From the NCBI GenBank assembly GCA_036172245.1, contig JAYWIR010000042.1, positions 1,612,001 to 1,676,000 on the forward strand: DNA of 64,000 nt, written 5' to 3'. This DNA comes from Raillietiella orientalis. Its lineage: Eukaryota. Shown here one piece after another: positions 8,801-60,199 of the stretch (within the stretch, counting starts at the first letter, position 1; each line of letters opens with the position of its first letter). The notes under the pieces are model-generated. The model was not told where the DNA came from. It worked only from the letters and a program-made list of their open reading frames with translations, and searched no databases. The position numbers were made by a program, and so were the translations under genes.

Positions 8801-11430
8801 ACATTTGGATGATGTCTTTCAAATTCTTGTGTTGGTTATTTTGAATGTAGAAAATCTTTGAAGTGATGAACTGAATACGTGAACCACAGAGTCATGAAAT
8901 CCAACCATCTAAACTTTTGGAGTATTAAATACTTCAGTAGATTTGATTGGGAGTACATTTCCAGTAAAGTCATATTTAGTTTCATGGTGTGTTTTTGAAT
9001 TGTTTTTAGTGTGCATTTGCTATTTGAATGGTTTGCAGTCCAGTCATCAGTATGCAAAATTGGAGTTTGCGGCAATCCAAGTTTGAGAGCCCTTTCAGAT
9101 TACTTGTTCCAACTTTTGCGAATATATCGGTGTTTTGATTTCACCATCTTTTCAAGTAGTAATCACATTTTTTCCTATAATTATGCAAACTGAGTATAGT
9201 CCATTTATGTGTGGAGCAAGGGAGTATCCACTTATGCTTTATTTAGCTTGAGATGCCTGCTTTTTTTTTTATCTTTGCAAGCATAGCAGGAGATCCAGTT
9301 TATTTGAACATTGAATATTGCACAAGTGATTTTTAATAACTCCCGATCTGACTTTTCGGAATAATGGTTCTTAAAGAAATATATTCATGTGCCACTCCAC
9401 ATTATTAGGACAATGAAACGTCATTTCTTCACAACATTGAAATTACTGAACTTCTAGCCAAAAAAACTATTGCATGCTAACCAATGTTTTTTGTTTGAAA
9501 TTGTTTTGTGGCATTTTTGTGCACAGCCAAAAAAATCTTGCCCATTATTCAGTTCCTTATTCTTTTTGAATTTAGTTCTGAACATTGTGAATGAACTGAA
9601 AACGATGGAAACTTTGAATAGTTTGAAACTTGAAGGAAACAGCTTGGGGATCGAAGCTGCAAAAGCAATTGGTGAAGCATTAGCGCTTCATTCTGATTTG
9701 AAAAGTGCTAAATGGAAGGATTTATTCACAGGCAGACTGAAGACTGAAATCCCACAAGCTTTGGTAATATAATTGTTACCTGTGTATGTTACTGTTGGTA
9801 TCCTATAATTGAAGAGTTATCTGAGGCAAGGACTAGAGAGAGGCCACGTTCAGTTAGAAGAACTAGATCTCAGCGATAATGCTATTGGTCCTGTTGGCAT
9901 GGAGGAACTACAAAACTTGTTAAAAAGTCCAGTATGCTACACATTGAAAGAGCTTAGACTCAATAATTGTGGTTTGGGTATCCAAGGAGGACAAGTAAGT
10001 AAATCAATGAATCCTGCAACAAAAACCTATATTTGCAGATGCTGTCAAATGCCCTCTTAGAGTGCCACAAATCAAGCAGTTCTGTAGGAAAACCTTTATC
10101 CCTAAGGGTTCTGCAATTGGGCCGAAATCGCCTTGAAAATAAAGGAGCTATCTCTTTAGCGAAATTGTTCAAGGTTATAAAAACTCTAGTGAGGATTAAA
10201 GCGTTATCAGATATGTAGGTTCTAAAAACTCTTGAAGTTGTCGAAATGCCCCAAAATGGTATCTACTTCAAAGGATTTGAAGCATTAGCAGAAGCTCTCG
10301 CTCTGAATTCTTTCTTATATGAATTAAATCTAAATGATAATACATCTACTGAGAAGGGAGCTAAAGCTTTAGCAAACATTATTCCCCATCTTCCACGATT
10401 AAAGATACTGAACCTTGGTGATTGCCTTCTCAAGACAAAAGGAGCTGAACTCATCAGCCATTCTTTACAGCTTCACAGTCAAGAATTGAGGGTTAGTTGC
10501 TTATGATTTCTTATGAATTGACAAATTAATATAGGAACTCCATTTATCTGCCAACGATATTTCTTTAAATGGTGCCTTAAACATATTAGAATGCACAAGT
10601 AATTTGAATAATCTGGATCTGTTGGATCTAAGTGGAAATTCGTTTGGTAAGATTGATTGTCATAAATTATTTTCTCATCCTGGAAGAGGTGATTGGGTTC
10701 ATGTCCTGCGAAATCTGTAAGCATTGCATTACTGGCTTAAACTTTGATGACTTTCCTGCTGTAGTAATGAACATGAAGATGAAATGGAGGGAAGCGAAGA
10801 ATGCCTAAGTGAAAGTGAGGTATCAAGAACATTAGATGAGAGTAATGACATTACACAGGAAGAATCAGACGTTTCCGTTGTAGAAAACTTTTTTCTACAT
10901 CCCACTATTGTGAACTTGCTAGAAATGAGTAAATATCCTGCATCAAAACTCCAGGAATACGTACAGGTAAAAAAATAGTTTCCAATTCTCACTTATGGTG
11001 CAGCATCATTGCAAACAAAGAGCATGACAATTGAGGACTGCTTAGAGTCTTTTGCCCAAGTAGCAGAGTTAACTGTGAATAACGAATCAGCTGTGGTTTC
11101 TCAGTCAATAATAGAAAAACTTTTAGCACATGCTTTTGCCACACATCCCATTACTACTACAAACTTATTGCTCGTAAAGTTAGGTCTACTTAAAGTGAGT
11201 GATTATACTTTTGTAGTTTTTACACCAGAATTATACAGGCAGAAGAAAAATCGTTTTCTGTGAACTGGAAACTGGAAGACTGCTTATTGGCTTTTACAAA
11301 CTATGTGAATCAAGTAACTCTTCCTCAAGAGGTGAAATCTATCTTACAATTCTTCCTGTCACAACCACAAAAAGAATTACAATGTTGCAAGGAAACTACA
11401 CATACATTACTGAAAGCATTATACCAGTAA
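5847..11430 (+). CDS. RANGAP1: Ran GTPase-activating protein 1 (spliced)
   Basis: Inferred exons 5847-6015, 9576-9763, 9815-9994, 10039-10173, 10219-10491, 10535-10646, 10689-10716, 10765-10966, 11021-11194, 11239-11430; all GT-AG and in frame. LRR motifs LEGNSLGIEAAKAIG, WKDLFTGRLKTEIP, LDLSDNAIG, GRNRLEN, MPQNGI; acidic linker; C-terminal LGLLKAEEK matches the RanGAP1 SUMO-site context. The 28-nt exon and the 11020 acceptor are less certain. Confidence 0.93.
8686..8703. repeat. (TG)9 microsatellite in RanGAP1 intron 1
   Basis: Direct read. Confidence 0.9.
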
Positions 11431-11485
11431 TAAAAACGTAAATGTTGAAGTAAAAATGTTTATTACTTAGACCATGATGAAACAC

Positions 11486-12544
11486 TCAATCTCTTGTTCC
11501 ATTCCTCTCACTGGCATAACTGGTTCCAGATCTCGATCTTGACCTGCTTAACAGGAGGATCAAATTAATGCTGCTGTTTCATTACCTTCTGCTTCTAACT
11601 GGAGAATAGGAATGTGATTGGGAATCTGATCGACTGCCACGTGAATAACTCCTTGATCTTCTCTGTGGAGACCTTAAGAGAACAAGAATGATGAAAAACA
11701 AGTCATGTCTAGTCTACCTCACAATCAGATGAGCACCTACATGATATGATCTCATGTTAGCACAGAACACTGGGTAAAGGTGAGGCAGAAATAGCTGCAG
11801 AGTATTACAAACCACAATAAACGAATCTACTGAGTAACAAGTGAAGATGCTACTGAATGATAACTGAAGATGGAATAAAAGAGAAAAAGGATTTGAAGGG
11901 ATTGTTGATTGCTGCTGGTACCACTGCAGGCATCAAAAGAGCTCTGTAGTATTCTGCTGCCTTGCAGATGGTCACCACAAAGAAAATCAAATGATGAGTT
12001 GGGAAGAGGTGTCAGATGGGCTGCCAGTGATGCAATAATGCTGAGAGACTTGTCAACTTGAAATGATACATGAAGTCCTAGAATGGGCAGTCCCATTAAG
12101 AGGTTCCACAGATTTTTGTACACCATTCATAAATTTTTTGTAGTCCCGAGTATCTGAGGAACTCACCTAGAGTAATTACGGGGTCTGTAAGAATATCGCG
12201 GCGAATAACGAGATGGAGGTCCGTAACGCCCTCCTCTTCGACTTTTCCCACTGGACATCTCTACACGTACACGGGAACCACAAATACGACTGTATTGATA
12301 TTCGTAGAATTTTATTTTACTATATTCAATTCTACCTTCCATCTAAGGCACGAACAGCATCTTCCGCATCTCGAGGATCTTCAAACTCCACAAAAGCAAA
12401 TCCAGGTGGATTTCTGGCTACCCACACATTGCGTAGTGGTCCATATTTGCCAAAAGCACTCTCCAGCTCATGCTTTGATGCATTGCTCCCCAAGTTACCA
12501 ACATACACCTTACACTCCAAATCCCACTCACGGTAACGTGACAT
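11486..12544 (-). CDS. Rbp1: Rbp1/SRSF3-like SR protein, downstream copy B
   Basis: Exons 12544-12336, 12289-12167, 11672-11586, 11543-11486. [22 protein letters not shown]...[21 protein letters not shown]...[11 protein letters not shown], then an RS tail ending GTRD*. AATAAA at 11464-11459. Confidence 0.92.
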
Positions 12545-12725
12545 ACTAGCTACTGATAACTAAATACTTTTGAAGTTCTCATTACATTCAAAGACTCGGG
12601 GTGGTGGGGTCGTCAAGCCCAATGACAGAAGTCTGCCTCTGTTCCCCTGCCAAAAACAAATTCACACAATTTTGTCAGTAGCTTTTATTCATCAAAAATT
12701 CAGTACATCTCCACACATAGCCACG

Positions 12726-14896
12726 CTAATTAGCATCATTACTGTGGAAACTGCCATGAGATCCTGAACGTGATCTGCAAAGATGGCAATAAATTCAGTT
12801 ACTTTTTTTTTCTAGAAAACAAAAAAAACAATGAATTACCTATTCTTTACAGGAGATTTTTCAGATGACCTGCTTTTGGCGCTAGAAATAAAGAAACGTT
12901 AATTACTGTAATATTTCCACTCACCCACCTTGCCTACCGTCTATCTCTGTTGTAAGAAGGAGAACGTGATCGACTCCTTGACTTGGAACGAGACATGGAG
13001 CGAGAGCGACTACGTGAATAACGGCGTGGAGATCTACAACATAAAAGGCACTCAGTATCAATAATGACCAACCCACATACCCCATTAGTTTTATACAAAC
13101 CTACGTAGTATATGTCCCACCCATGCCCTGAAGCGTCTTACGCAGTTAGTACAAATTCCCGACCTTACATTAAGATTATTGCAAACAGTGAAGTGAAAAC
13201 AAAATTTTACATGACTTTCAGCTCCCTGTGAAAATGCAGAATTTAAAGGGTCGACCATAGCAGACGCTGGTCATGACTTTGAAGAGCCGAATGTAACCAA
13301 TAAGCAGAAATACGAGGTAAAGCAGCCGAATAGTCGACTGGCGAGCTGATTTAACATAGCCGTGAAGTGGAAGTAGAATTTCAAAAAGGGTTTGGGTGAT
13401 GTGTTCAATGATGTCAAGGATGACAGAATCACATCTTTGTGGCAAATGGCGAATTATCAGATGGGAGTACAATAATAATGGGGAAGGCCATCCTGAAATT
13501 GGTTTATACAAGATAATATTAGTGCATTCCATCTAGTTTTCGGCCGAATCAATATCTCACTCTCTACATAGGTTAATCATGTCTGACAAATGCACTAATT
13601 TTCAGTGTTTCAGATACACAAAGTTTATAACTTTGCAATGGCTCCACAGCCAACATTACTGTATGTACTAAGGTGTACAAAGAAAAACCTAAACTGCTAC
13701 ATAACGACAATTATAAGGTATTTCATAATGTTGTCCATGATGCCGAAAACTTACCTAGATCTTGAATGCCTCCGGTAAGTATCATATCTGGAGTACCTGG
13801 AAGGTGGTGGGCCACGACGTCCTCCCCTTCTACTGCGGCCAGTCGATATTTCAACTCGCACTCTTGTACCACACATGCGCCTGTAAAATCACTGAACTTT
13901 AATTTTTGCCATTACGATACTTAAATTTAATTCAATGTTCACAAAAACTTTAAAACAAGATTGGAACTTTTTCCAAAACAAATGCTACTTGGAAAAACCA
14001 ACAAGTTCAAGACTGAGTTTCACATATATTTAATGATATAAATAACTTACTTAAACATATGAAAACTCAATAAAATCAAATGAAAACAAAACTCGAAACT
14101 TGTTTCACATTCTGAAGGGCTCATTGATAATGATCACGAATATCTTGCTCAAACTCTTCCCATATTACACTTTGTATAAAATAAAATTTCATAAGAGTAA
14201 TCTTGTGGATAAATCACCAAAATGCTACAAATGTCTGCAAAGACGATTGTTTCGACAAATATCAGAAAAATGATGACTCCGTGATATTTACATTTAAAGA
14301 ATTGGAATAAATAAAACGGGAAAATTACGTGAACCATTTGATTATGCCGATAAGAATTACGCTAAACCACATTTGCTTAGCCACTTATAGTTTATTTCAA
14401 TCTATTCAAAATGTGACTTCACAGTACTAATAATAACTCACAAACAAATGTCATTAAAGGATACACATGTATTCCTACTCACATAGATCTGCTATTGAAT
14501 CAAATGTTAAATACAATGGTAATAAGATTCAAAATTAATCCATGTAAGGGGTGAAAGAGAATAAGTTTAATGCAAAAAATACAAAATTCATTCTACAAGA
14601 AAGTATGCCTTTTACAGACATCCTTTTTGAGGATGGCAAAAGTGACACCAGTGATAACAAGGGATTTTAGCAATATTAATCACTTACGCTCCATCTAATC
14701 CCCTAACCGCATCCTCGGCATCTCGGGGATCTTCAAATTCAACAAAAGCAAATCCTGGAGGGTTTCTGGCCACCCAAACATTTCTAAGTGGTCCATATTT
14801 ACTGAAGGCGGACTCAATTTCATGCTTTGAAGCATTATTACCAAGATTACCAACGTAAACTTTACTTTCTAATGCTCTGTCATAATAACGGGACAT
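12726..14896 (-). CDS. Rbp1: Rbp1/SRSF3-like SR protein, upstream copy A
   Basis: Exons 14896-14688, 13880-13755, 13033-12938, 12881-12840, 12774-12726 (all introns phase 2). [22 protein letters not shown]...[13 protein letters not shown] tail ending SNDAN*. Alternative short form stops at 12934. AATAAA near 12689-12684. Confidence 0.9.
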
Positions 14897-16044
14897 CTCT
14901 AATGCTTTTCTAGAATATCTAAAAATTGCAGTCACTTTTTATGCTTACTACAAACAGTGACATTCATTTTTATGTATTCATTCATTCACATAATACAATA
15001 TAACATGTTACCTTAATCAATGAATAACTTAAATAACTTTCGAGATTTGAAATCAAGTCTCAAAAATTTATGTGGTAAAAAAATTTGCAATCTTCTTAGC
15101 ACGTTTAATAGTGATGGCTCAGAAAAGCACTAATTTCAACTTTCAAAACGAAAAAACTAAATACCAACACTGAGCGACACTTTCAGCAATCTGCTTTCAC
15201 TATAAACCACAACACAAATGGCAAACAACGCAATTTGAACCGTGCCTTGCAAAAACTAAAGTAAAACGATAAAAAAGTCAATAACGAATCAAGGCTGACG
15301 AAATGCAAACTGTAACCTTGCTTCAAACATAAGCGGTCGAAACACATCGGACTGCTGAACTTAAATGCGAAAACGAGCAATGCGCTGCAATGGTGGAATC
15401 CTAAAAAATATGAAGAGCACGCACTCTCAAATCATGCCTGAGGCTTCACAAATGGTTCCTAAGTGGCTCCACAAGTAAACAAACCCTTCAACAAATAAAG
15501 TAAAAATTGAGACCTACGCTACTTTTCAACATATTTTAAGAGTGTTAGAATCAGACTTAGATTCTAACACTTTGACGAAAAATGATCACGAATATTGCAA
15601 CCACAGGCCCGTTTACAATGAAAAAAAATTATTCTCAGATCACTAAAATTCTACATAACGTATTCGGGATCGACGCATACAACATAATTACAAACAATTA
15701 CAATACTTTTTGCAGCAAAGCACCAAAACACTGTACAAAAAATTCGAGTACATAGCTCTCAACTAAAACGAAAATAAAGATTCAAAACCGGGTAACGAGC
15801 TGATTAACTCCTAGCGTTTTTCTACACATCATTATAACACCATTAATTAATCCGTCCTATCGCAATCTTTCCCGCAACGGTAAAAAAACTACCAAATACA
15901 CTGGTGCCGCTAAGGCTGCTCTCCAAAGAAAAACACTCCAAAGTGACACTTTCATATTCAATACTTCAATACATCCTCAAATATATTCCATAATGTAGTT
16001 CTTACTTCTGAATGTAATGATTTACGCACCCACAACATACTCAC

Positions 16045-16110
16045 TATATTCAACGCAAACAAGTTGGGCACGCGTCCCTCTATTTTGCGGTCAAAATGGC
16101 GGCGAAATAG
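16045..16110 (-). promoter_or_regulatory. Putative non-coding leader exon / core promoter of the Rbp1 locus
   Basis: YY1/Pho-type motif CAAAATGGCGGC at 16092-16103, local CpG enrichment, and a consensus donor GTGAGT at 16044 on the minus strand. Confidence 0.55.
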
Positions 16111-18136
16111 TAGTTGTTGACGCATAAGGAAATACCAGTTCCTTTGAATTAAAAAACGGAAATTATGAAACTGCACATAAAACTATCAAAGGTTACAGTG
16201 ATATGTTTTTTTTTCAAACATGAAATCATGGAAAAACCAAGAATGAGAGCATTTTGTTTTGAATTACGGAAAAATTCATGATTTTTTATTTTTTTCATCA
16301 TTAATGAAGTTGTAAAGAATTCAAACCTCACAAAAAAATATCTTTTTTTATTAATTTTATAGTTAGAAGATTTCTAGAAGTAAAAATTGCAAGGTCCAAA
16401 TCATTCCATGCGGTCTCAACCATTCCATATTGCTGTATTTGTTTCAATATTGCATCCCGGAAAGCATTCTGGAAATCAATTGATAGAAAAAAATACCTGC
16501 AGAAACTCTTCCTCAGGTTTCCCTCTCATATTAGGTTTTCCTTAAGTGATTCCTTACGTGACTGTCTCCAACGTTTCATTTAAAATTTCATTAAAAATGA
16601 TGAAGATCCTAAAACAAAAAAAGTATTTCCAAATATTTGCAAGTTAAAGGATTAGGGAGAGATTTAGAACATCTAGAGCAATCTAAAGTATATCAATTTT
16701 AATATTAAATAAAATATTAAATAATATTAAATAAGCACCTGCAATAATTAAATCAGAGCTTCCGAGAAAACACAGTTATGGATTGAGATCACCAAGCAAT
16801 GTTTTGGCAACCAATCAACCTAAACTTTGAATCTTAAATTTCTTTTACGATTTGAACTGAAGAATTGAAAATTCAAACGCAAAGGATTAAATTTCATATC
16901 TCACACCTTTTTCTCTTATTTTTCTTCATTTATATAATTTGATTCAAACTATACAGAGTCCAACCTAAATCCAATTTATGAGCTACTGACAATTACAGTG
17001 AGAATGCTCCCATGATATTGATTCCTTTTAGGAAACAGTGGTAATTGTAGGTATTTGTACCTAAAGTTTTCTTTGTAATAAAAGTCCCCTGTAAAAAAAT
17101 AATGTGATGGATTTAATTTTAGCCATGGAAAATGCTAATGCTAAAGGTATTGTTTCATACTTTGAAATCAAAGTAAATTCATTTAAAAGTAATAGTACAA
17201 ATAACTTTAGTAGCATTACGACGCTCTACTCGAATTCATTTTTGATTATAAAATTCACACAATCCGGAAACATCTGTTCACGAAGATTTTTCTCTGCCGT
17301 GACTTTCACATATTTCAGCTTCATAAGGAGAATTTGTTCCCCTTGTTTATAGTAAATTGGATCCTGCGAACACATCCTGGACCATGTTAGTATAAATACA
17401 TATTCATCATTCAGGAAACTCTATGATCTTTTTATTTAGTTCTCCGGGGTTTCTCTTTTAAATACTCGTATTTCCTTCATTGTTGTGCATGATAATGCTT
17501 GCTTGCTAGGAGTGGAACTCATTTTTTTTGGCAAAGAGTTACTTATTCCATTGAAAACGAAGTAGAAATTTATGAGGGTCACAGGCTGGGACTTTAATGA
17601 ATTATATTAACTGTGTATGTATCTCGGAAGGCAAGATTTTCTTCTTACGTAGCTCATTAAACTGAAAATATTACTAGATGTATGCCATCAAATGAGGTTC
17701 CTTTTTCCTTTTTTTTTTGGCTGGATTACTAATTCAGGGTACTGATAATTAGGAGCATATTTTTCTACCTTTTGACGATGTTTACAACCGCTAGCAAAAT
17801 GAAAACCTTTTCTGTTTTGTCCAAACATTTATTGTTGGGAAAAATGTGGGAAAGCGTGCGTTGGCCTTTACTTTTCACATAAACAATCGTCGGTCGAGCA
17901 GGGTACACCTATTTGTACTGGTCCTCGTTCTTGCTGCTCTAGCAGAGAAGAAACTCTCGTGTGCATTAGCACAAAGTTGGTTGTCGTTAAGCAAAAAAGT
18001 GTTTTCCATAAAAAAGAAAAAAAAAAGTCGCCGAAAATTTGAAATTTATGTGGGTAATCTTCTTTCGCAGTGCCCCTTGTCTAACTTGAATGTTAAATTG
18101 TAAACTTTCGTTTACTGGACGTGTTTCAACGTTCGA

Positions 18137-18908
18137 ATGACATTTTATTTGCCAGTTTTTCCCAAACTGAAACCGTCACGGTTGGATTCACTTTGGTTTA
18201 ACGTTGACAAACCCCGTGATGAGGAGTCGGAATTGTCCAAGTTAGAAAAGGAGTATCAGCAGTGGGTAAATTAAACGTTCGAATGACATTTTATTTGCCA
18301 GTTTTTCCCAAACTGAAACCGTCACGGTTGGATGAGGCGTTGGTTTAACGTTGACAAACCCCGTGAAGAGTCGGAATTGCCCAAATTAGAAAAGGAGTAT
18401 TAGCAGTGGGTAAAAAGAAAACCTTGCTCGGCCTAATCGCAGGCTGGGGGAGCCTCTGGCAACCGCGATTGTTGATTTTTGAGCTGTTATAAATTTTTGT
18501 AAAGCTGACGCAGCCTGTGGATTTTAATTCAAGAATTGAATTTTAATTGCCATGTGTGTGAATGACTTGCATAATTTTACCTTTGTATCAGAGCATGAAC
18601 TGTTTTTATGTATATGTAAGAGATTTATTTTTTTTCAGCTCACAAATATAACTCAGAAAGATGTTGATTTGGCCCCAATTGGAAAAGCAGCACATGAGGT
18701 TATTAGCATTTTATGTATTTATTTTTTGTGTGATGTATGTTGTACCACATGCAAAGGCGTTTAATTTTTCATATTGTTTTAGCATTTAGATGAAGATGAT
18801 GATGATGATGATGACAATGACGAAGATAGTGAAAGTAATGATATTGATGATGATGATGATGATCTAGATGTTGAAATCAATGACAATGAATCCCAAGTGA
18901 CCCTATAA
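18137..18908 (+). CDS. ANAPC15: Anaphase-promoting complex subunit 15
   Basis: Exons 18137-18265, 18639-18698, 18783-18908 give MTFYLPVFPKLKPSRLDSLWFNVDKPRDEESELSKLEKEYQQW|LTNITQKDVDLAPIGKAAHE|HLDEDDDD...; matches the recalled APC15 pattern (LWFNLDRP..EETEL..QAWL..I..KD..L.PIGK followed by an acidic tail). Confidence 0.9.
18274..18413 (+). pseudogene. Disabled tandem duplicate of ANAPC15 coding exon 1
   Basis: Near-identical copy of 18128-18270 (period 146 nt). A +1 indel gives an early TAA; also a 3-nt deletion and CAG>TAG at 18401. Donor GT at 18410 is retained. Confidence 0.9.
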
Positions 18909-19104
18909 ACAATAGAGAGTGGTTGAAGATACATTGTATTTGTTGAATACTTCCAATTGCTTAAATTCTTGAAATTTTTCCACAAGGGCTGGTTTTCTTT
19001 TATCACATTGGAATAATGTGGATATAAGTTGCACTCTTTAATGTAGTGTACACTGACGTAACTTCTTGTCGATATTTATCTAATTTTTTCCCTTCAGGTG
19101 CAGT

Positions 19105-19758
19105 ATGAACATATATAACATTTACATTTTGTCGAAATCTGGTGGTCTGATTTATAATTATGATCAGGTCATTGCACGATCCCCTGTAGAAAAAACCTTT
19201 AATTTTCCATTACCACTTGTCTTAGGAAAATGCAACAATAAAACTGTAGTCGTATTTGGTGAACAAAGTGGCATTAAAGTTGGTTACATCTTAGTGAATA
19301 TTAATGGATGTCATGTCAATGGGTTTCAACTTGAAGGAGGCAGCAAAGACATATTTGAAATAATTCAGGACCCTGAAAATTATCCCCTTACATTGCAGTT
19401 CAGCCCACCATGGAATACAACAAATGACAAAATCTTCCTAGCTAGTATGTTCTATCCACTGTATGCATTGTCAGCTCAGCTTAGCCCAGAACAACACAGC
19501 TCAGGAATAGAACAGCTGGATGCAAATAATTTTAGAGTACACTGCTATCAGAGCCCAACTGGGATAAAGTTTTTGATAGTTGCCTCCCCTAAGCTCTCAG
19601 CAGTAGATGCACTGCTGAAGAAACTGTATGAACTCTATGCTGATTTTGCACTTAAAAATCCTTTTTATTCCTTGGAGATGCCAATACGTTGTGAATTATT
19701 TAATAGTAATGTTCAGGAAGTAGTAGAATTAGCAGAGAAAGCTGGAGGTACCATATAG
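19105..19758 (+). CDS. TRAPPC4: Trafficking protein particle complex subunit 4 (Trs23/synbindin), intronless CDS
   Basis: 217-aa ORF: IYILSKSGGLIY, PDZ-like insert, TTNDKIFLASMFYPLYA, SSGIEQL, LYELYADFALKNPFYSLEMPIRCELF. Acceptor ttttttcccttcag ends at 19097; AATAAA at 19780. Confidence 0.96.
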   Translation: MNIYNIYILSKSGGLIYNYDQVIARSPVEKTFNFPLPLVLGKCNNKTVVVFGEQSGIKVGYILVNINGCHVNGFQLEGGSKDIFEIIQDPENYPLTLQFSPPWNTTNDKIFLASMFYPLYALSAQLSPEQHSSGIEQLDANNFRVHCYQSPTGIKFLIVASPKLSAVDALLKKLYELYADFALKNPFYSLEMPIRCELFNSNVQEVVELAEKAGGTI

Positions 19759-27907: not shown

Positions 27908-30900
27908 CTACAATGAATATTTGGTACCATTTTCTGGTACTGAGCTTTTCGAATTTTGAAACTTGAGAAAACAAGGACTTTTAGCAAAATGTAATTTTTC
28001 AAGTAGCAGTGTATCTGCCTATAAATAAATCAATGGTTTTCTAGTGTCCTCTTGTATAAAAAGAAAAAAACAAAATCAATTTATTAGCATGCATCCAGGA
28101 TGCATCATCAACTTCACTTCCGTCGAGAGCTATTTCGTTTTGTGAATTTTTTGGGGAAAATTCTGGAGCTTTATATTTCAGGTTCAGAGCGGTAAATTTA
28201 CAATTTGCATTTGAATTCTCGTCATCTTGGTTTGGCGAACATATTCTCGACCTCCCACATCCTTCGATTGTGTAACGCATTGTGTTAATTGAACGGTGCC
28301 CTTAGGCCTGCATGTGCTCTTCAGATTCTGTTGCACACATCACAAAATCAGCTTCCTCATGCAGCTGGTCCTAAGGAGATGCCACGCTGAAGTTTGCCTC
28401 CCGCCTCGATCTTTATCATCGATTTTATATTGCAGTGCTCATTAAATACGGGGCTGGTCCTCCGAACTTTGTACACCTCTGATAATGTAGAGTTCGGCGC
28501 CAAGAAAATGCTCATCAAAATAAAGGCAGCAAAAAGAAAACCCTTGAAATAGGTTGCACTTCCAAAATTCACTTTGTAGGGAAAACACTGGAGCAGTTTA
28601 CATCGGTCGACACTGCATGAAAATATTCCTCAGCGTGTTGAGATGGATCCAAAAAAGGTTGCAATCCAATATCGGCGCAGACTTTTTCTAAATTAGCAAC
28701 TTGCAAAATGAGCTCCCATTTTCAGGATGCAAAAATGCTCGTAGCAAAACAGTATTTAACTCTCTAGTTTCTGGATCATCCTATACTAGAGGACGATTTT
28801 TTTTTTTTTCCCCCTGCCTTACACAAAGAATTATTATCCTCTGTGTTGTTGTCTTTGTGTTGCAGCACGGATCATTAACATTTGAGAGAAAAATAAATAC
28901 AAAAAAATTCACACACGATGCTTCATTTAGTGAAAAACGCGGGTCTGACAAGCAATGATCGTGGCAGCAAATTGTTTTTCTGGAATTCTTTCCTAATGTC
29001 GGCAAAGGGAATTTCCTGAAATGATGATTCTAATCACAAGGACAACACAAGTCTGGAAGCTGCTCTCAAAAGCAAACGTAAATATAAAACCGCTCATCTC
29101 GGAACAGGAGAGAGCCAAAACAAGAAGGGCAGAGCAAATGCAAATACACAAAACGTGAATATTCAATCGAATAAATGGATTCAGTAAATGTTAGTATGCA
29201 TCCTTTTTCTTTCTTTCCTTCTTCCTCGAAGTTAGGCGTTTGCAGTTTTGTTGCGTGGAATGATGACATTAATCATCACGATGAGCGCTCATTCCGTATA
29301 CAGATTGCAGGCAAACCTTAAAAAGAATCTTGTTCATATCAAAATATCCTGCATGAGATAAACGAAATCTCCGTGGAAGACTATGTAACTTTTAGAAGGA
29401 AATTAATTGTTTCATAAAACGAAATCAATCCTTGGAATAAAGGTGTACTGGAAGCTATAGAATGTAAACAACATCTCCAGGTGGCAAGTACCAGATTTTT
29501 TTTACAGGAGAGAGCATATGACATGTAGAGAGCAAATAGGAACGAATGAAATTTTAGAATTGCATAAATCGGAAAAATATTGAAAAAGGAAAGGATGCTC
29601 CAAAAAAGGGATCTCCGAGCAAGGAAAGCAACAAAGTACACATCTCAATCAAACTAAAGGACTCGCCATGGCCTACCGCCAAAGTGTTCTTTGCTACCGA
29701 AATACTGCTACTGGTAACTATGGCAAGCCCGAGGGATGCAGACTTATTTGATGTCGGATCTTCTCTTCTAGCGTTCATGAGCCGCGCACCCTTCTTTATA
29801 CTGAGGAAGAGGTTTTCCGAGAATCGAAGGTTGCCGGAACCAGATGGCAGATCCTGAAAAATGTGACTCAAAATGGCCACCAACAAGGAGGACTCAGGAG
29901 CCATGAAAGGGAGGGTCTTGTAATCATAGGAAAGAGGGAAAATTCTTTGCCATATCCTTGCGACTTGAAGATGTTTTCTCTTTTTATCATTCAGGTACGT
30001 AGCAGTTTCTGGGACCTGTGAGTTATGCGTTGTTGCACTGCTGACAGTGACAGGGTTCGTTGTTTACTATTTTGGGCAGAGCAGATGACGACTTAGGTTC
30101 TCGTTTGAAGATGACCTACCACGATTTCCTGCACCATCTCCCTCACGCCACTGCTTGGGAGGTGAGAAGAAAACAGACCCCGACTTCTTGTTTGCACGAC
30201 CTTGGTAACCCTTCTGAATACTGGACTTAGTCACCCAGGCCATTCTTCAGGCTAAAGACAAAAAAAAAGATTTCCCGAAGGGATTATCCACAATTTCCTG
30301 GAGTTCTTCTTATATTCCTCAAAATTCACAGCATCAGCAGGTGCGGAAAGCCATGCACTCAAGATTTAAATGCCTGGAATTTCTGTACTTTCCAGCTGGT
30401 GGAAAACTTCAGAACTGTGGCTACCTCTGCTGACTCGTTAAGGCTTGTCTCACACCACACGCAAAATAACCATCTCTACTCTATCCACTACCATTTTCGG
30501 ATGTCAGTGGCCATCTGGCAACTTCTTTCCAGAGAGGATGGAAAGATATTCGCCGTCCGCGACCAATCTCCAACAGTAACGACCTAAAGTTATGCTGATA
30601 CCTTCAGGAACGAATGCCATTCTTCACTTTATGGAAGAAGCAGGCCTTGGAATTGAGCTTAGCAGCAGCCACTCGAGCATCATCGTGGATGTTATCCACT
30701 CTCAAATGCCAGGGAAGCATCCTGTAAATTATGCTGCTTCACTCTCCCTAAAGCTGTTGGCAGAAGGGACTTCTCATTGTCTGGAAGTCTCTTTCAGCCT
30801 CCGCAGATTTTTCTCTGAATATATGACCTTTCCAAAGAGCCTCGGGAAGAGGACACACCACAGAGGCATTCTCACACCAGAGATGCGAGGGAAAAGAGTG

Positions 30901-36094: not shown

Positions 36095-38699
36095 CTAAAA
36101 GGGTAGATGAGATGATGGTTGCACTAGGGAAGCACACTGCCATCTAAAAGGCACAGCGTTTTACTGTGAGTTCAACAAGAATGATGAACTCACTTTGAGG
36201 ACTTGTATTTGTTTGGAATGGCTTGTTGAGGATGTGAGAATGCACCAACAAAAGATTTATGAATTAAGAGTATGCATGACTGGAGATCAGTGAGCTGATA
36301 ACCTGAGAAATCTTGCAATTTACTATCCCATGCAGGCAAATCAAGTGTATGCCTTGCTAGAGCTATTGCTGAACAACTAATGATGGAAGGGAGATGTTGA
36401 AGGAATGTCTCAACATCCAAAAGAAACAACTCTGTAAGATACTGCAAAACAACTGGTATCCTTTTGAAACATAAATTAACTTACCATAGCAAGGTGTTGT
36501 ACTCGTTGTGGCACATCACAATGATAACAGAAAAACTGTAGAAACACCAAAGCTGTAGGTGTTCCTGTATCAAAACATAATACTTTGAGAATGAGCTGCT
36601 CCATTCGGAGAAGCTGTTGCTTATTGTATGTATTGTCTGTGATGTAAGTAAACTCAGATACATCAGGTGGATAAATTTCCTCATATTTGCTACTCAGTCA
36701 TTGGTGAAAGAGCTCACAGAATACTCACGCAGCAATGAAGATGGCTGTTGTGCCTACTAGCTGTAACTTCGACCGTAGCACAGACATGTGACACAAAAAA
36801 CGGTCAATTAAAGAGACTGCTAAGTATAGTGTCTCTGCATGTAGTTCAAATTCTTCTGCCACTTCCACCAACCAATCAACAAGAATGCTACGCATCGTTG
36901 GAGTGATGTCTGATTGCCTCTTCATGTAATCAGGGTTAGGATGATACTTCTCCTGTGAATAACGAAATAACTCATGAAAAAAGACAATTCATTACTGAAA
37001 CAATGTCTTTGTGAAATGCTGATACAGGCTTTTAAAGAATTTTCGAATTCGAAAGAATTTTGAGGATAAAACTAGTACTTCTCAGTAGAAAGGGAAGTCG
37101 ATCAGTCAGATCAGTTGTGTCAGTGGTACACGCATTTTCTGCATTCACACAAAAGCAAGTGTACATACACAATATCTAGGTACACATTGCCCACATATGT
37201 AGGATGTGCAGCAAGAGATGGAATTAATCTAGATTTATCTTGTGACTGCCATTCACTAGACCAAAACCTACAGTAGCAGCTTATCTGAAAGCAGTTCAGG
37301 ACAAGAGTGCTTCATGATCCAGAACTACTATCAAAATAACTTTCGATTACCAAAACCAAGGAAACTAAAATTCTCAGTTGCAAATGTCACCCAACTTTAC
37401 TTTTTGATTTTTGAATTTGAATTCAGATTTTGAATTCAACCTCGAGTTCAACTGTCTCACTTGATAAAATTTAAGTTTTCAACAATTGTAAATTTGAAAA
37501 GTACTTACTTCCATTTGTTGCAGATGAAAATAGACATCAGCAGCATACTCATCAGACTGAGAAGTAGAACTATCAATTCTCTTAAAGCTTTGAGTAGAGT
37601 TTTGAGAAGCATCAATACACTTAACAGGCTCATCAGGCAAAACTTGAATATTTTCTTTGTTATCATCAACACATGCCATGTCCAATACTGAAGCATCTTT
37701 GAATTTTACAGGAGAACTCTGAAAACATGACATTTGGGTTTTTAAATGCTTTATCCTGTTCCCTATGTTCAACCCATTTCTCACAATATAAGATGGTCTT
37801 TATTTGAGACATGTGTAAAGAGCAATAATAAACTGTTCATAAGAATAGTACAAACATTACTGAAAGAAATTAATTATGAATTGCTGGTTAAATAGCCAAG
37901 TCTAAAGTAACTGTTTTGTTTGTTAGTGAACCTCTTAAATTCAATTATTATTGGACTTACTTCCAGTTCAGAATGTACTTCTTTCTGTACCACTGTTGCT
38001 TGTGGAATACTCTGAAATTATATAATATTAAGGAAAGCATTTTCTATTATGCCCTGACAGATTCCGAGTTCAACGAATGCAAAATAATTCTACACACATG
38101 TGAAAAGCTAATCCTACAGATGTTTTCTCAAACATAAAACTCCAAGGATTCAAAGTTTTGAATTGTTTCAAAATACCCAAACGTAAAAAAGGCAATTTGA
38201 AAAAAAATCATTCCAGTTAAAACATTCAATTATTCAGCCAGATCCAGTAGGAATCCAGTCTGAATATTAATCTATCACCATGTTTGTTGAAGTTAAAAAT
38301 ATATTAAAAATTTACCTGTAATGAAGGAGGAATGAGGGAGGAAACGTCATCTCTCTCATTTTGAGAGTCCTCGTAAACTTCAAACTTACTTTTTGCTTTT
38401 CTGAATTGTGCATTGTATCCAGCAATTTCTTGAACAGTTTTTTCAGTTTTCTTGACTTCCTGATTAAAAAAGATTTAAAAATTAATTGAAAGAAAACTTT
38501 TTCCATCAGAGTGAAGTCATAGTCAGAATTTACAATCGTTGAACCGCACAAACAAGGAATGACTTACCTTTTTAGTATTTCTAAAAGGCTGGATTCTTTT
38601 TATATTATTTGTAAGTAATCCAAGAACTTGTCTTTTGGAACCATTTTTTAGTGCTTCTTTCGGAGGAAGTTCCTGGTTTATTTTTAAAGCGTTTTCCAT
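36095..38699 (-). CDS. CycA: Cyclin A
   Basis: Exons 38699-38568, 38459-38316, 38011-37961, 37718-37509, 36952-36729, 36689-36485, 36441-36194, 36143-36095. D-box [13 protein letters not shown]-like FEVYED, KEN, cyclin box [55 protein letters not shown]. Confidence 0.95.
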
Positions 38700-39170: not shown

Positions 39171-42100
39171 GGCAACTACAAGATTCAAAGATAAAGGATA
39201 GCAATACGGCTTAGATATACACGTTCTTATCAAACAATCTTTTAGAAATACTTGCAATACAAATCATGCAGCGTCTCATTCTTTCATGAATTTAATGCCT
39301 ACATAAACCAAGCTAGTTCTGCAACAAGTGCGTACACATAACCAACAATCAATCGAATTTGCAATGCACTTTCAATGATCCAATGGTCGTAGTACTTATG
39401 CAGAGTCCGGACAAAATTCAAACAATGACTGAATGCAGTAATTGCTCGATATGAATATTAGTAGCTGTATTTAGTAAAAGTTCGGAATAAATGGAGGCAT
39501 AAATCGAAAGCGATTGTCTCTGAGATGTTTTCAAGCCAAAAGTTTACTGAAAGTGGTACTATAAGCAGTCCATGATGCAGTGGCAATTCTACTGCCCATT
39601 TACGAAGAGCATTCCACTTCTCCGGAGCCACGGCAAATGAATATGAGGGGGATAGGGATTTAACGAACCAACGGCTATTGACTAATTTTCGAAGCACACA
39701 GAAGATGACTTGCATGCCAGCTATCCTTAAAGACGCCGCGATATCCAAACGTTGAGACCCAGCAGCCACGGACACAAAACCTCGAAGAGTTGTACGAAGT
39801 TCTATGTTGAACGGGGACTCCCGTAAAAACGACGAAGAGCAAAATAAGGAGAAGCACGCAAGCTCGGCATACAAAAATGAACAAAAAACCCTTCAGTAGA
39901 AAAAAAAAAAGAAAAAAAGAGAAAAAAAAAAGCATTCTGATTTCAACAATGAACACCAGCGAAAACATTCACGATCGTGCATTGCGGCTATTGCAACACG
40001 ATCGGTGCTCCCTCACGACGAATTGTCCCCAGGAATGGGGGGGCTGCCGAGCACAATGGCACACCTCGAAGTTCAGGTCGCCGGTCAATCGTGGAAGTCG
40101 ACGCTACCGGACTCCTCGGTCAACACCGAAGTCATCGGACTCGGCAGGGAAAACCCCAGTGGACCAAACTGTGCTTCCACTGCTGTTACATCTCTGTTTG
40201 CATAACGAAAGCACCTTGACAATTAGTAATAGGAATAACACCAGTGAAAAAAAAAAAAAAAAAAAGCTCCACGAAATCTTCTTTATTACGAGTCAGGGCT
40301 TCTTCCCAACATAAGTTCATTTTAAATACTTTGAGAGAATGAGGATTTCAATCCCTACCTCCAGTGGCACAAAGGATGCTCGTATGTTGAGTTTTTCCCA
40401 CTTCACGATGCTCAGCGAGTCGAGAGTTCTCTGCTATCTATCTTCATGGCAGAAGGATGGCTCATTGCAACATCATTTCCCGATTAGCAGTATTGCTTCT
40501 GCTAGTTAATTGCAAGCAAAAGAGCGAGAGGGCGTTAACAAGCTTTTGAATTGGAAACTTCTTCCATCTTCTGCCTCTGCCTGTTCGCTTCTTCCAATCA
40601 CGAAAGAACGGTTTTCTGGTACGCTCATCTTTCAAGAGGCTTGTTCCATATCTCAGTATTAGCAAAGGGTGCTTCACTTCAAGTGCACAGTATCAGCATC
40701 ACATCCTGAACACTCAGAAGTGCCGATTATGAGCTGACTGCAGATCTCTGCTGGACGTTTTCGTGGTTGATCAGTGCAAAGAACTCTGACGAGCCCGTTG
40801 TTGGTGGCATGCCATCTTCTGCAAGGTTCTAATTGGCTTGACATCCCAAGGTTTCTTTAGTTTATTATTTCACTGCTTCTATAGCTTTTTTCTTTTTTTT
40901 TTCTTTTCTTCACATTGCTGATCTCAGCTGACATTTGGAATCAATCACCTTTGCAAGTTTTGGCTTTCGCTTCTCACTTGCTATGTTTTTGTTTTTCTTT
41001 TTTTCCAGATTTCGTCCTTGGCATTGGAACAGCCTTTCTCGGAGAGGGAGCTGAAGACGGCGAAAGAGCAGGAAACGCATCAGAAGGAGAAGAAGGAAAG
41101 AAGAAGAAGAAAAAAAAAAACCCCGCATGGGAAAAATGGCTTTCAGAAGGGATACCGCACGTGATTTTCAGAATTCGCTGTCTCTTCTGGACAGGAAACA
41201 GCAAAACTTATTTTGATTTTGTACGAGCGTTTTATAACTTGGTGAGGGCAAATGTGAAAGGGAACTTTCAGACATGCGAGTTCGAGAGCCTCATTTTAAT
41301 AAACTTGGATTTGGGCCTTTTGACCGCATTTGCTGAATTTTTGCCGGATCTGAAGCAACCTGTCTGGAGAACCGAAGTCTCGGTGAGCTGCGTTTAGGCC
41401 GATTCTTCTGCTCTTTCATCGACACAACGCCACTGGAACTAACTTGACTTGACTTTTCTGCACTGGATTGGAAATTACGAGCTCTGTAGTGAGCGATAGT
41501 GCGAACTCTGTAAAAGAGGACCACGTCTGACGGCATCATCATACATTTCGATAACACATGTCACTATCATGTATGTGTGAGTTTATGAACTTTTCCGGTG
41601 ACTGCGGCAGAGGCTGAATTTTTCGGGACGAGAGCGGTGTCCACGGAATCCCGAAACCGGGACTGGTTTTCATCCAGACGATGGGTGATGAGAGGGAAAG
41701 AAGACCCGAGTCGAGCCGATCTCCTTACCGGTTTCCCGCATGAGTGTTTCCAGCATTGCGTTTGGTTCGCCGGCGTCAAATTAACTTCTGTGGCGTACAC
41801 CTCTTTGCCTCAGGCTGGTCCACGCAACCCACATCCATAATCTCGGATAATTCCCCAAACCCACTGACGAGTTAGGAAGTAAGTAAACAGTTGATTCCTT
41901 TCCTCCACTTTACGGAGAGCACGGTGGGTTCACGTCATCCGGCACATCCATTTTTCCCAACGTTTCCATTCCGGAGAGAGTTTCCAGAACTTCTTTCTTG
42001 CACGGCACGTCAAGGAATGCTTCTCACCTAAGGAAACAGCCATAGCAAGCACAGTAGGCGTTTTCTGAAAATCTGTGTAAATACATCGTACCACAGAGTG

Positions 42101-43760
42101 GATCACTCATGAGACACTGCATGACAATGGCTGCCCCACACAAAATTTGCATTTTGTGTGAGTCTACGGACTGCTGTCTAGCGGGCAACGGAAGGATTCA
42201 TCTGATCTGTGGGAAACTTCGGCCGGATGGTTGGCGGCGGCATCACGAAATCGCGATTTGCTTCGTTTTGCTTCGTCGAAAATCAGCATTCGCATTTGTG
42301 AATGCCATTTTCCCTCTGCACCACCGTGCTGTTGGCAAGCGGTTGGGAACCCTTTGTTCCGATAAAGCGTTCCTCCTGCGTGCGCCTCCCAAAAGGCTAT
42401 GCGGGCCGTGTTCTGATGGTGCTGCTGCGAAGAGTAGATTCCTCACCCGATCTAAAAGAAAGGAAAAAAAAAAAAAAAAAAACTGCCATGGGCGAAATAC
42501 GGTTTTTGTGGACGCAAGGGCACGCAGTGTGGTTTCGTGGTTGCCGACTACTGCAAGACCATGTGCAGCTGAAATTCTGGATCGGTGGCAGATAAAAGCG
42601 AAAGTTTACTCCAGAATTCCAAAAAAAGAAAGATTTTCTTTTTTTGTTTTTCTTTCCGACGTTCGGGAATCGGGTACCGTGTGAAAAAAAAGTCTGTTCT
42701 TTCCCTGGCGAGATGCCTTACAATCGGTTTTGCACTTTTTGTTTACCCCACGCAGATTTCGCGTCTCGCGCCATCGTAGGAAGTCGCTTACGTCACGGGT
42801 GACGTATCTCCATTCAGTTGACCGGCGAGCTCGGAGGGATGGAATCGACATGGTTGGTGCTACGGCATTAATCAGGCCCGGGGATCAGCAGGCTAGGAGG
42901 AGCCCCGCTGAAAGTTTCCAGAGACAAACGAGGAGGAACCACCACAGATTTGAGCCACGAATTGCGATGCCGTCCTCGGCTCCGGAGCAGCACCGACGTT
43001 TTTCCGTGTACGCGATGGGTTTCCCGGCAACGCTCGCGTCTTGCACGCAATTTTTTTCTTATTTTTTTTTTTTTTATCTCGCATCGCTTCAATTGGGCTC
43101 GCGTACTCTTTCGCCTTCGACGCTGAATCTGATTGGTGATTCACGTGTTTGTTTCAAAAGCCAGTCCTGATTGGTCAGTTTAAATTTCTCTGCAGGCCAT
43201 CCAGAAAATTTTTCGAGATTCTTGCAGCCTCCTCCTCCTCCCCCCCCCCCTGAAGAGGAATTTTCAACTTGAAGTACTGCAATGTGAAGGAAGCAGGTTC
43301 TACTAGGCACATACATCGAAGTACAAGGAATACTGGAAAGCGATAGTAATTACTAGCGATGAATGTTGTCAGTGGATCTTCTAAACTGTAGTACTACGCT
43401 AGGTCGCACTACTTTACGAGGAAAGGTATTTCCAGTAGTGCATATGTACATTAGTACAAGCAAACGAATGATCGAACTCGAGGCAAAAAGTTAGGAGCCA
43501 ATTGTAAACACGAATGCACACAAAACATGGGCTCTCGAATCGAAAAAAGATTGGATTTCGAGAGAGCGGATTCCACGTCAAGAATTCCCTTATGGTTAGC
43601 TTTTTAGATGTGTTTGCTATTCTTCTTTCTTTCGTGTGTATGTGTTGGTTCGTGAACGACAACAACAAAAAATCAGTGATTTGCCCTACAGTGGCTCGTT
43701 TGAAAACAAGGTGCGGCAAATTTCGGTACTTTTTGAAAAGTTCGTCCATTCTTGAGGCTC

Positions 43761-43794
43761 CACTTTGATCTTAGCCAAAAGGCCGAGAAGAGAT
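43761..43794 (-). pseudogene. U2: 3'-truncated U2 snRNA retrocopy (first 34 nt)
   Basis: Minus strand ATCTCTTCTCGGCCTTTTGGCTAAGATCAAAGTG equals the U2 5' end with one mismatch; flanked by a 13-bp direct repeat attcttgaggctc / attcctaaggctc. Confidence 0.9.
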
Positions 43795-45162
43795 ATTCCT
43801 AAGGCTCAACAGTCGCAATTTGGAGATAAAAAAAAAAAAAAAAAAAAAAAAAATCGCACGTTTGGTGGTTTAAATACATAATTACTCATCTCGAAAGTAA
43901 ATACCGAATGTTCAAAAAGTATGTATTTCCGCACCGCCTCCTATCTATGTGTAGCCCTGGCAAGGAGAAAAACACCGATATAAGAAAATCGTTACCGACT
44001 TTTGAGCATCGGATCGTCTTTCTGATTGTAAGTGGTTCGGTTCGACGTATGGCTTACATTTGTATCAACAGAGTGCTCGAATTGCCTTCATCACGAGGCA
44101 TATTTGGTCACAAGGAAGAGAAAAAGAAAAAAAAAAAAGATGGAATCCTATATGAATAAAACGTGAAACACAGAGTTTGTCCGAGGACGCCTGCGTGGAG
44201 TACTGCAACATCCATCACTGCGTAGCAGCCTGTGGTATCCGGTGATTTTTTTTGCTTCGACGTTTACCAAAAGAAATCTGCATCGTGTAACCTGCTTTAA
44301 AGCACTAATTTACCCCAAGTATTGAATATCACGTGGTGGGCTACCGCAATTAAACTGAAGATGCCAAAACATAGAGGCACGAACTATCGGTAGTGTGCCC
44401 AAGTTCCTTTCGTTAGAATCGCCCCACGATTATGACAAAGTGCACTTCCTTTCGTCTGGCATAACCATTAATTTCGTTAGTAGCAATGCGTGCACGTTAT
44501 CTCCATATTAGTCTCCTAGTAGTCTAACAGCAGCGTTTCCTCTGTGTTTTCTGGGTGCACAAAGGGTATCCACGAAGGATTTGAAATTCCTGTAGAGTTT
44601 TATATCTGCCTTTCACCGGGAAGAGTTTTCCAGCCTTCATGCATGCTCTCCATTACATATCATTTTCCATTTGTTTTTAGGCAGCACTTTCGTCTTATGT
44701 AGTTGGCAAGTATCACCGGACGCTCCATTCGTTTGCTTTTATTTCCCTGACCGAAGATGCAGACGTCCATTTTCTCTTGGAGACGAACATTCCTGCTTCC
44801 ATGATTCCCACACTCGCGTCTTTCTCATACATGATGTTTTCGTTTTCCTTTCCATTTACCTTCTTAGTCCTAAAGACGGGTCCACTGAAGCACTTCCCGA
44901 TTCTGCCATCCTGTTTTCACCCTTGCTTTACGCTTCACCCCAAGCCCCGCACGACCCCCTCCATTTTCCACTCCCGATTGCTCCTCAATGATTTATCACT
45001 CCGAACAGAAAATTTGTGGATACTTCCAACTGAACTCTGAAACTGTTGTGTTTCGAAAACTAGAAAGAAGGTGTTCCCAAAACTGCTGTTCCCCGAGTTG
45101 TGGTTCGACTTGATCTACCTTGATTTTTGAAATTTCATAGAGGCAATCTTGAAGCATGGATA

Positions 45163-45462
45163 ATTGGCCTTCTAGGATTCACAGTATGAGCCCACCACGT
45201 ATCTACAGTAGGACGAGCCTATTTCACCTCAGCTACCATAATCATTGCCATTCCAACAGGAATTAAAATCTTCAGATGACTAGGAACCTTATCAGGATCA
45301 ACACTATCGCACACCATTCCACTATTTTGAATCTTGGGTTTCCCCTTCCTACTTACTATCGGAGGACTAACTGGTGTTGCCCTAGCTAACTCGTCCATCG
45401 ACACCTCCCTCCATGGCACATGTTTTGTCGTGGCCCACTTCCACTATGTTCTACCTATAGGG
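45163..45462 (+). pseudogene. COX1: Nuclear mitochondrial insertion (NUMT) of cox1
   Basis: With the invertebrate mitochondrial code (TGA=W, AGA=S, ATA=M): [40 protein letters not shown]...[33 protein letters not shown] 15-nt deletion removes MDVDT and conserved residues are substituted. Confidence 0.95.
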
Positions 45463-45469
45463 TATGGAA

Positions 45470-45878
45470 CCTCACCGTACAAGTCGGTCTGTTTGCACTT
45501 CACACAATACCTACGATTCCTCATCGAAGTTTTCCATCGATGGGTCAGCTGCGTTATTCTGCCAACGAGAGGAGTTATTTGTTTTTGTTAAGGAGATTGG
45601 ATCCCACCTTCAAACGGCCAGGCTCCATTTGCTGGTGAAGAAACTGTCCACCACCAAAATCGAAGGTGGAGCAAGCCATCATACGAAAGGTTGCAGAGGT
45701 GATACGTTTTCTTTCCCTCTTTCATTTGCCCGGGTTTTGCTTTCGTTCATGTTCGGTAACAGCACGTTTAGTAAAACGGGGAGGCTTATCTTGAAACCCC
45801 TTGGCAAATAATTGCAAACTGGAAGAATCGTTTTCGAATCCACTTCTGGTGACATGAGATTACGGAATGAAAAAGCGA

Positions 45879-45910
<32 letters not shown>

Positions 45911-47199: not shown

Positions 47200-47395
47200 G
47201 CAAGAGCAGGGCCCGAGAGACGAGGTTCGTCTTCTCCGAAAGATTCCAAGTTTCGTGTGGCCACTCGGAATTTCGCATGGATGGTGAGAGTGGAAGAAGA
47301 ACTCATCGCTCACGCACAGCCCCCGCTTGACAAGAAGTGCTTTGAAAACACGCGGACGCCGTTTCACTGTTTTCGCAGCAGACCAAAGTGAACAC
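47200..47395 (+). mobile_element. L1/Tx1-like ORF1 fragment
   Basis: VRLLRKIPSFVWPLG...AQPPLDKKC resembles the ORF1 RRM end plus knuckle; frameshifted. Confidence 0.3.
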
Positions 47396-60180: not shown

Positions 60181-60199
60181 TCACTCTGCGGATACCTAA

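Follow-up and report, generated by a model that had tools for sequence, protein, structure and literature searches.

A tandem pair of SRSF3/Rbp1-type genes in Raillietiella orientalis that may form one transcription unit

The 64,000-nucleotide (nt) window analysed here (Raillietiella orientalis contig JAYWIR010000042.1, positions 1,612,001 to 1,676,000) carries two tandem genes for serine/arginine-rich (SR) proteins, A and B, which we judge, with a probability of roughly 0.6, to be co-transcribed from a single promoter. This single unit is favoured because B has a 6.0-bit splice acceptor behind a short, donor-poor spacer that contains A's polyadenylation (poly(A)) site, and because there is one family-typical promoter element for two genes, a parallel pair nearby (ANAPC15-TRAPPC4) and a two-gene precedent on two related contigs (L062 and L066). 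A promoter of the CCATTTTG type, with its leader at ~16.1 kb, would drive the A-B unit. For the A mRNA, the leader would be spliced from its 16045 donor to the 14910 acceptor, with polyadenylation at 12689-12650, and polymerase reading beyond A's poly(A) site would supply B, whose 5′ end would be formed by splicing at an acceptor cluster before its ATG, best at 12550. We infer the co-transcription itself and the identity of B's splice partner from features that are observed directly: the gene models, the poly(A) signal, the acceptor scores, a unique promoter motif and the parallel ANAPC15-TRAPPC4 unit. The two genes and the DNA between them comprise the following features.

14896-12726, minus strand: gene A coding region, 173 amino acids (aa), an open reading frame (ORF) unbroken over GT..AG introns, with an RNA-recognition motif (RRM) and an RS tail
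14896-14688, 13880-13755, 13033-12938, 12881-12840 and 12774-12726, minus strand: the five coding exons of gene A
12725-12545, minus strand: A-B spacer, 181 nt, with A's poly(A) site and five ATGs
12689-12650, minus strand: gene A poly(A) site, with AATAAA at 12689-12684, CA at 12674-12673 and a GU/U-rich stretch at 12669-12650
12554-12546, minus strand: acceptor cluster before the B ATG, with AGs ending at 12553 (2.1 bits), 12550 (6.0 bits) and 12546 (-2.5 bits)
12544-11486, minus strand: gene B coding region, 158 aa, with an RRM and an RS tail
12544-12336, 12289-12167, 11672-11586 and 11543-11486, minus strand: the four coding exons of gene B
11464-11459, minus strand: AATAAA of gene B, 21 nt past its stop, the same style of site as that of A

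The genes are arranged head to tail, A terminating with a TAG whose last base is 12726 and B starting 181 nt further on (ATG 12544-12542). All seven coding introns of the pair are GT..AG and phase 2, and the first lies at the same position in both genes, after nucleotide 209 of the coding sequence (CDS); in B it measures 46 nt. An initial annotation of this DNA had described two complete SR-protein paralogs, with a stop at 12726, an AATAAA for A, an ATG for B at 12544 across 181 nt, an acceptor at 14911-14910 and a leader donor at 16045, and it is correct on every one of these points. Pfam RRM_1 matches both first exons (A, E-value 3.2e-18; B, 1.9e-18), and the closest chains in a search of solved structures are the SRSF3 RRM (best, E-value 7e-31) and then the SRSF7 RRM. 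The tails contain 26 (A) and 17 (B) RS or SR dipeptides, at R+S fractions of 0.58 and 0.56, and neither protein has the CCHC zinc knuckle that marks SRSF7/9G8 (pattern C..C....H....C; one to two cysteines in all). Because they combine an SRSF3-like RRM with RS-rich tails and no zinc knuckle, we assign both predicted proteins to the SRSF3/Rbp1 type.

Divergence between the copies is deep at silent positions and shallow in the protein. Over a 173-column alignment, 111 residues are identical between the two proteins, and the first exons agree at 157 of 209 nt, with third codon positions (33 of 69 identical) near saturation; yet the first 88 residues are 88% (A) and 90% (B) identical to damselfly Rbp1, and the first exon of B reaches at most 94% identity to odonate Rbp1. 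Near-saturated third positions beside 88-90% identity to insect Rbp1 argue for long selection on both copies, implying that the duplication is old and that both genes, intact and kept functional under long purifying selection, are presumably expressed. A tree of 49 N-terminal sequences (88 columns) places A and B in an unresolved polytomy with insect-type Rbp1. The initial annotation proposed that everything after exon 1 was duplicated in tandem. Comparing the A locus with the B locus by blastn aligns coding exon 1 alone (76% over 207 nt) and detects no non-coding similarity; local alignments of the sequences preceding the two ATGs (40, 80 and 180 nt) give scores that 738, 900 and 205 of 2000 shuffles reach, and the 3′ flanks likewise do not rise above shuffles. 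With no non-coding similarity left between A and B, nothing now marks where the duplication began and ended. Nor is a partial duplication required for the A-B layout, since the unrelated ANAPC15-TRAPPC4 pair is laid out in the same way; a general mechanism, be it operon-type processing or compact promoters, accounts for the two pairs better than does duplication of all that follows exon 1.

Splice sites were scored with donor and acceptor position weight matrices built from 14 frame-verified introns (seven from A and B, two from a cyclin gene at 36442-36728 and five from TAF1 at 49195-50256). On this scale the A-B spacer offers only weak donor candidates, at 12724 (2.7 bits) and 12585 (2.3 bits), and its five ATGs compare with 4.0 in shuffles, which is no depletion. 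The AG at 12551-12550 stands out: it lies 5 nt before the B ATG and 134 nt beyond the AATAAA of A, and it ranks in the top 3.8% of window AGs. An acceptor so close before the B ATG exceeds chance, because just 3.4% of the 2652 window ATGs have an AG of at least 6.0 bits within 15 nt upstream. The initial annotation had seen an acceptor directly ahead of each ATG. For A this stands, at 14910; for B an acceptor exists, but the AG named, 12547-12546, is matched or beaten by 57% of window AGs, and 12550, 4 nt upstream of it, is the better site. A similar division applies to its suggestion that the phase-2 introns permit A/B chimeras. Such chimeras would be in frame, but not through the start-proximal 12550, where any A donor would meet an in-frame TAG directly after the junction, ending one base before the B ATG. 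Joining any A donor to 12546 would keep B in frame, so that an in-frame A-B fusion through the start-proximal acceptors would need that weak site.

At the other end of the proposed unit, two features precede gene A.

16045-16110, minus strand: putative non-coding leader exon, with CCATTTTG at 16099-16092 and no ATG
16044-14910, minus strand: putative intron in the 5′ untranslated region (UTR) of gene A, 1135 nt, ending at AG 14911-14910

The leader donor at 16045/16044 reads GTGAGT (6.5 bits, top 2.4% of window GTs) and lies 47 nt downstream of CCATTTTG, an element that we take to resemble a YY1 site. The acceptor AG at 14911-14910 is 13 nt before the A ATG (2.9 bits, top 15%). Six ATGs fall in the last 200 nt of the intervening sequence before 14910, which makes this part of the 16044-14910 stretch an unlikely 5′ UTR. 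That a single promoter-like leader with a donor is evident, as the initial annotation had it, is borne out: beyond the copy at 16099-16092, no match within one mismatch of GCCATTTTG occurs on either strand of 10261-16091. Across the whole window CCATTTTG is not enriched (7 copies, 5.4 expected), so its evidential weight comes only from its position in related loci. We compared 80 such loci from a metagenome collection, 77 of which, having at least 60 nt upstream, entered the motif count. Twelve of the 77 have the 8-mer in sense orientation no more than 500 nt ahead of the ATG, against ~1.3 expected, and there is one antisense case. In three intron-free, cDNA-like contigs it lies inside the transcript, and the L067 copy begins 7 nt from the end of the contig. 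Joining the leader to A would place the motif 68 nt before the ATG, and joining it to B at 12550 would place it at 60 nt; in five relatives without a 5′ UTR intron the distance is 61-62 nt.

The architecture of the leader recurs as well. Among 18 genomic relatives inspected by eye (of the 80 loci), 13-14 have an acceptor 8-18 nt before the ATG, in agreement with the earlier expectation of a non-coding first exon spliced just ahead of it, and 15 have a GT after CDS nt 209. The comparison supports the putative leader exon, and a non-coding first exon fits this gene family. No conserved non-coding element was detected between the locus and the 80 related loci: all 147 blastn matches fall on exons A1, B1 and B2, and the highest DNA identity, 86%, extends over 35 nt. 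CCATTTTG recurs in or just upstream of the 5′ UTR of Rbp1-type genes across several lineages. Elsewhere in the window a perfect copy lies at 29869-29877 (minus strand) and a near copy at 56095-56103 (minus strand), ~950 nt upstream of the TAF1 ATG and followed by donor-like sites.

The same layout is repeated by two unrelated genes on the opposite strand.

18137-19758, plus strand: ANAPC15-TRAPPC4 two-gene unit, identified with Pfam, with a 196 nt spacer

ANAPC15 (ATG 18137, stop 18906-18908; Pfam E-value 8.6e-14) is followed by the intronless TRAPPC4 (19105-19758; Pfam Sybindin, E-value 1.7e-43), whose ATG stands 7 nt behind an AG (19096-19097) of 9.7 bits, in the top 0.4%; only 0.41% of window ATGs have an acceptor as strong within 15 nt upstream. 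The spacer contains donor-like GTs at 18919 (4.1 bits, for a 179 nt intron) and 19058 (3.3 bits, for a 40 nt intron). No acceptor of at least 2 bits was found in the 100 nt ending 11 nt before the ANAPC15 ATG, and no non-coding leader is evident there. Both two-gene units face outward from the sole large gene-free gap (16110-18137), and each meets a convergent gene tail to tail, the stop codons being 34-55 nt apart.

A precedent comes from outside the window. Two of the 80 related loci, contigs L062 (coordinates 1-2399) and L066 (1-1278), are ~99% identical, and each contains a tandem pair of SR ORFs (163 and 126 aa) without coding introns, also at the conserved intron position; the remaining 78 loci are single copy. 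A segment of 340 nt in L062 is missing from L066, and because this segment is GT..AG, ending 3 nt before the second ATG, the two appear to be the spliced and unspliced RNA forms of one two-gene stretch. They resemble the A-B locus in their tandem SRSF3-type paralogs and in an acceptor close before the second ATG. They differ from it in their spacer, in which no AATAAA or ATTAAA was found between the ORFs and which is ATG-poor once spliced (463 nt, one ATG against 4.6 expected, P = 0.048), and in stemming from a separate duplication. Tandem duplication of the Rbp1-type gene recurs, as gene predictions in databases indicate: those of a stick insect, a braconid wasp and an ostracod join two or three copies of Rbp1 in one protein. 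In the wasp fusion four residues separate the end of copy 1 from the methionine of copy 2, which suggests an acceptor ~12 nt before the copy 2 ATG. Taken with the conserved CCATTTTG element, the two-ORF contigs from another lineage suggest that co-transcription may be a recurrent outcome of tandem SR duplication.

Several observations weigh against a single A-B unit. The L062/L066 pair appears to be an independent duplication in a distant lineage, and its two-ORF contigs could have been produced by an assembler merging overlapping transcripts. The matrices, with 14 sites, are crude and noisy, giving 7.3 bits to an AG upstream of the TAF1 ATG that has no pyrimidine tract. Because intergenic DNA is compact here, the spacer might hold a small promoter for B alone; weak donors in the two spacers would allow introns of 36-40 nt to the acceptors (12585, 2.3 bits; 19058, 3.3 bits); and a TGACG half-site is present in both, 67-71 nt before the B ATG and 47-51 nt before the TRAPPC4 ATG.

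In an alternative that we hold to be possible, if not favoured, B has a small promoter of its own in the spacer or the 3′ end of A, with either no 5′ UTR intron or a tiny first exon followed by a mini-intron (donor 12585, acceptor 12550 or 12546, 36-40 nt), and A and B are ordinary neighbours in a compact genome. The 34-55 nt between convergent stops show how compact the DNA between genes can be, and mini-introns of 39-46 nt are the main intron class. The 12585 donor is of the GTAATG type, and its score compares with true donors down to 2.1 bits; splicing there would remove two nearby upstream ATGs, and the TRAPPC4 spacer matches with its 19058 donor and 40 nt intron. Such a promoter would, however, have to fit into the ~120 nt between the expected cleavage site of A and the B ATG, a spacer without any copy of CCATTTTG, and the 12585-12550 intron, at 36 nt, would fall below the 39 nt minimum of the 14 verified introns. 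The TGACG half-site, picked after looking, is not enriched in the window (53 matches, 68 expected) and was dropped as promoter evidence, as was a second motif picked in the same way, TCGCCRNNA (5 matches, 7 expected).

If the pair is indeed transcribed as one unit, B's 5′ end could be made in more than one way, and the route is not readable from DNA alone. One possibility, held tentatively, is a strict operon, in which cleavage and polyadenylation after A are accompanied by trans-splicing of a spliced leader to the B acceptor. Spliced-leader operons of nematodes, chaetognaths, rotifers, flatworms and tunicates likewise consist of same-strand genes less than 250 bp apart, with a poly(A) signal ~130 nt before an acceptor that lies a few nt before the ATG. 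Two such pairs occur here: in the A-B spacer the AATAAA-to-acceptor distance is 134 nt and the acceptor is 5 nt before the B ATG, ANAPC15-TRAPPC4 shares this geometry, and both spacers (181 and 196 nt) are shorter than 250 bp. The separation of less than 250 bp between same-strand genes is a working criterion for candidate operons in chaetognaths, a phylum in which trans-splicing affects 48% of genes and tandem duplication is widespread (PMC12460157). The very short introns of the window also suit an operon. Introns this short are typical of trans-splicing lineages. The present pairs differ from those operons in that ordinary leader exons, spliced in cis, appear to serve their first genes; A seems to use one, as TAF1 probably does. 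Rfam, at the gathering threshold, returned no hits in the 64 kb window, hence no spliced-leader RNA family there; spliced-leader RNA genes are usually located elsewhere in a genome.

Leader sharing, the main proposal of the initial annotation, in which the 16045 exon would be cis-spliced either to 14910 or, past all of A, to B, so that polyadenylation after A competes with a long splice, is in our view unlikely; the alternative it named, a two-gene precursor resolved by trans-splicing, has at least equal odds. Its appeal is one leader with a good donor (6.5 bits) and two acceptors near two ATGs, an ATG-free leader that would give a clean 5′ UTR from either junction, and a motif-to-ATG distance for B (60 nt) close to the 61-62 nt of relatives. 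The kind is known: FlyBase flags 130 Drosophila genes with a common promoter and 5′ non-coding exons (PMC4528330). Such sharing would leave the ANAPC15-TRAPPC4 pair unexplained, as no leader acceptor is evident at ANAPC15, and no trace of the duplication limits remains.

It is quite improbable that A and B share one mature dicistronic mRNA, whether or not a spacer intron is removed from it. The L066/L062 contigs, with two ORFs and a spliced spacer in another organism, offer a parallel, as do the 159 dicistronic pairs that FlyBase records, ~18% of them between similar genes that are probably tandem duplicates (PMC4528330). Those dicistronic pairs, such as Adh-Adhr, and the promoter-sharing genes resemble the proposed A-B unit in having two coding genes served by one promoter. 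Donor-like GTs lie just past both upstream stops (12724, 2.7 bits, 175 nt; 18919, 4.1 bits, 179 nt), and a splice from 12724, one base past the A stop, to 12550 would remove A's poly(A) site. Yet these donors are weak and the pattern was noticed after looking; the spacer has 5 ATGs against 4.0 expected; and a canonical AATAAA with a GU-rich element stands between the ORFs, which sets the locus apart from an obligate dicistronic arrangement of the Adh-Adhr type. That one copy is silent or decaying is scarcely credible: B lacks a promoter motif, and nothing further speaks for it, against intact ORFs with canonical splice sites in both genes and long purifying selection on both N-termini.

On the favoured reading of one transcription unit, the A-B arrangement belongs to known kinds (operon, shared-promoter pair or dicistronic pair) and is a new instance with SR paralogs. 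Its nearest protein relatives, Drosophila Rbp1 and Rbp1-like and vertebrate SRSF3 (SRp20), likewise have one N-terminal RRM, a short RS tail and no zinc knuckle. Drosophila Rbp1 and Rbp1-like are unlinked, whereas only 181 nt separate the tandem genes A and B, for which a single promoter is evident. Through RNA processing, SR proteins regulate their own abundance and that of one another, and feedback involving Rbp1 and Rbp1-like was reportedly described by Kumar and Lopez in 2005; by analogy, the A and B paralogs could cross-regulate each other. If there is one precursor, the paralog ratio would depend on whether the RNA is polyadenylated after A or spliced on to B, the A and B products themselves could govern that decision, and SR cross-regulation would become testable in a simple layout. 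Should the organism trans-splice, the A-B pair would be one more, ordinary operon.

A more specific form of this idea, which we regard as a long shot, would make the spacer a self-regulated switch, in which the A and B proteins choose between the poly(A) site after A and read-through with splicing at B. A 12724-12550 spacer intron (175 nt) would delete A's poly(A) site and leave the A stop 6 nt from the B ATG, and with an A exon spliced to 12550 the reading frame of A would close at the TAG one base ahead of the B ATG, coupling termination to re-initiation at B; the whole would act as a paralog-ratio homeostat within one transcription unit. Within the subfamily, SRSF7 reportedly yields Split-ORF transcripts, and the vertebrate proteins SRSF3 and SRSF7 are reported to control proximal poly(A) sites (PMC7948361, PMC12179342). 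The likeness to A-B lies in two-ORF transcripts and in proteins that steer poly(A) choice; the difference is that SRSF7 Split-ORF involves one gene split by a poison exon and not two whole paralogs. Overall, the interpretation put forward in the initial annotation is partly supported.

The long second introns of A (13221-13532) and B (11830-12126), on the minus strand, each contain a stop-free sense-strand stretch of ~100 codons with G+C above that of other introns; no similarity was found between the two stretches or to the related loci. The poison exon of SRSF3 and SRSF7 sits at the corresponding place.

Both convergent neighbours crowd the two-gene units. RanGAP1 (RanGAP1_C Pfam match 11203-11427, plus strand) stops at 11428-11430, facing the B stop at 11486-11488, and the expected cleavage site of B overlaps its 3′ end; TRAPPC4 stops at 19756-19758, facing a TIF1-like gene whose last ORF ends at 19796. 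With stops 55 and 34 nt apart, the 3′ UTRs of these convergent genes must overlap on opposite strands. A possible TIF1-like first exon ~170 nt past an upstream AATAAA is ambiguous, with an acceptor and a donor both flanking it, and was not used. Eight of the 14 verified introns measure 39-46 nt, 11 are no longer than 65 nt and three span 494-807 nt, with a minimum of 39 nt. They form two length classes, the short ones with rather loose donors (GTAGTA, GTCAGC, GTTAGC), and introns so short are uncommon in arthropods, despite the arthropod-like look of the SR protein. The best matches of TRAPPC4, from insects, barnacle, scallop, scorpion and fish alike, share 53-61% identity with it, and nothing in the protein collection searched exceeds 61%.

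ARAGORN gave no hits in the window. The window is of metazoan character, its G+C varies between 0.32 and 0.53 in 2 kb steps, and the G+C-rich blocks at 40000-48000 and 58000-64000 (0.44-0.53) contain many ORFs overlapping on both strands; no Pfam match was found among their ORFs of at least 100 aa, most shorter ORFs lying outside the scan. The first coding exon of ANAPC15 with its flanks (18104-18270) is directly duplicated at ~18272-18410 (plus strand), where the second copy has an in-frame TAG in place of CAG and looks like a decayed pseudo-exon inside intron 1.

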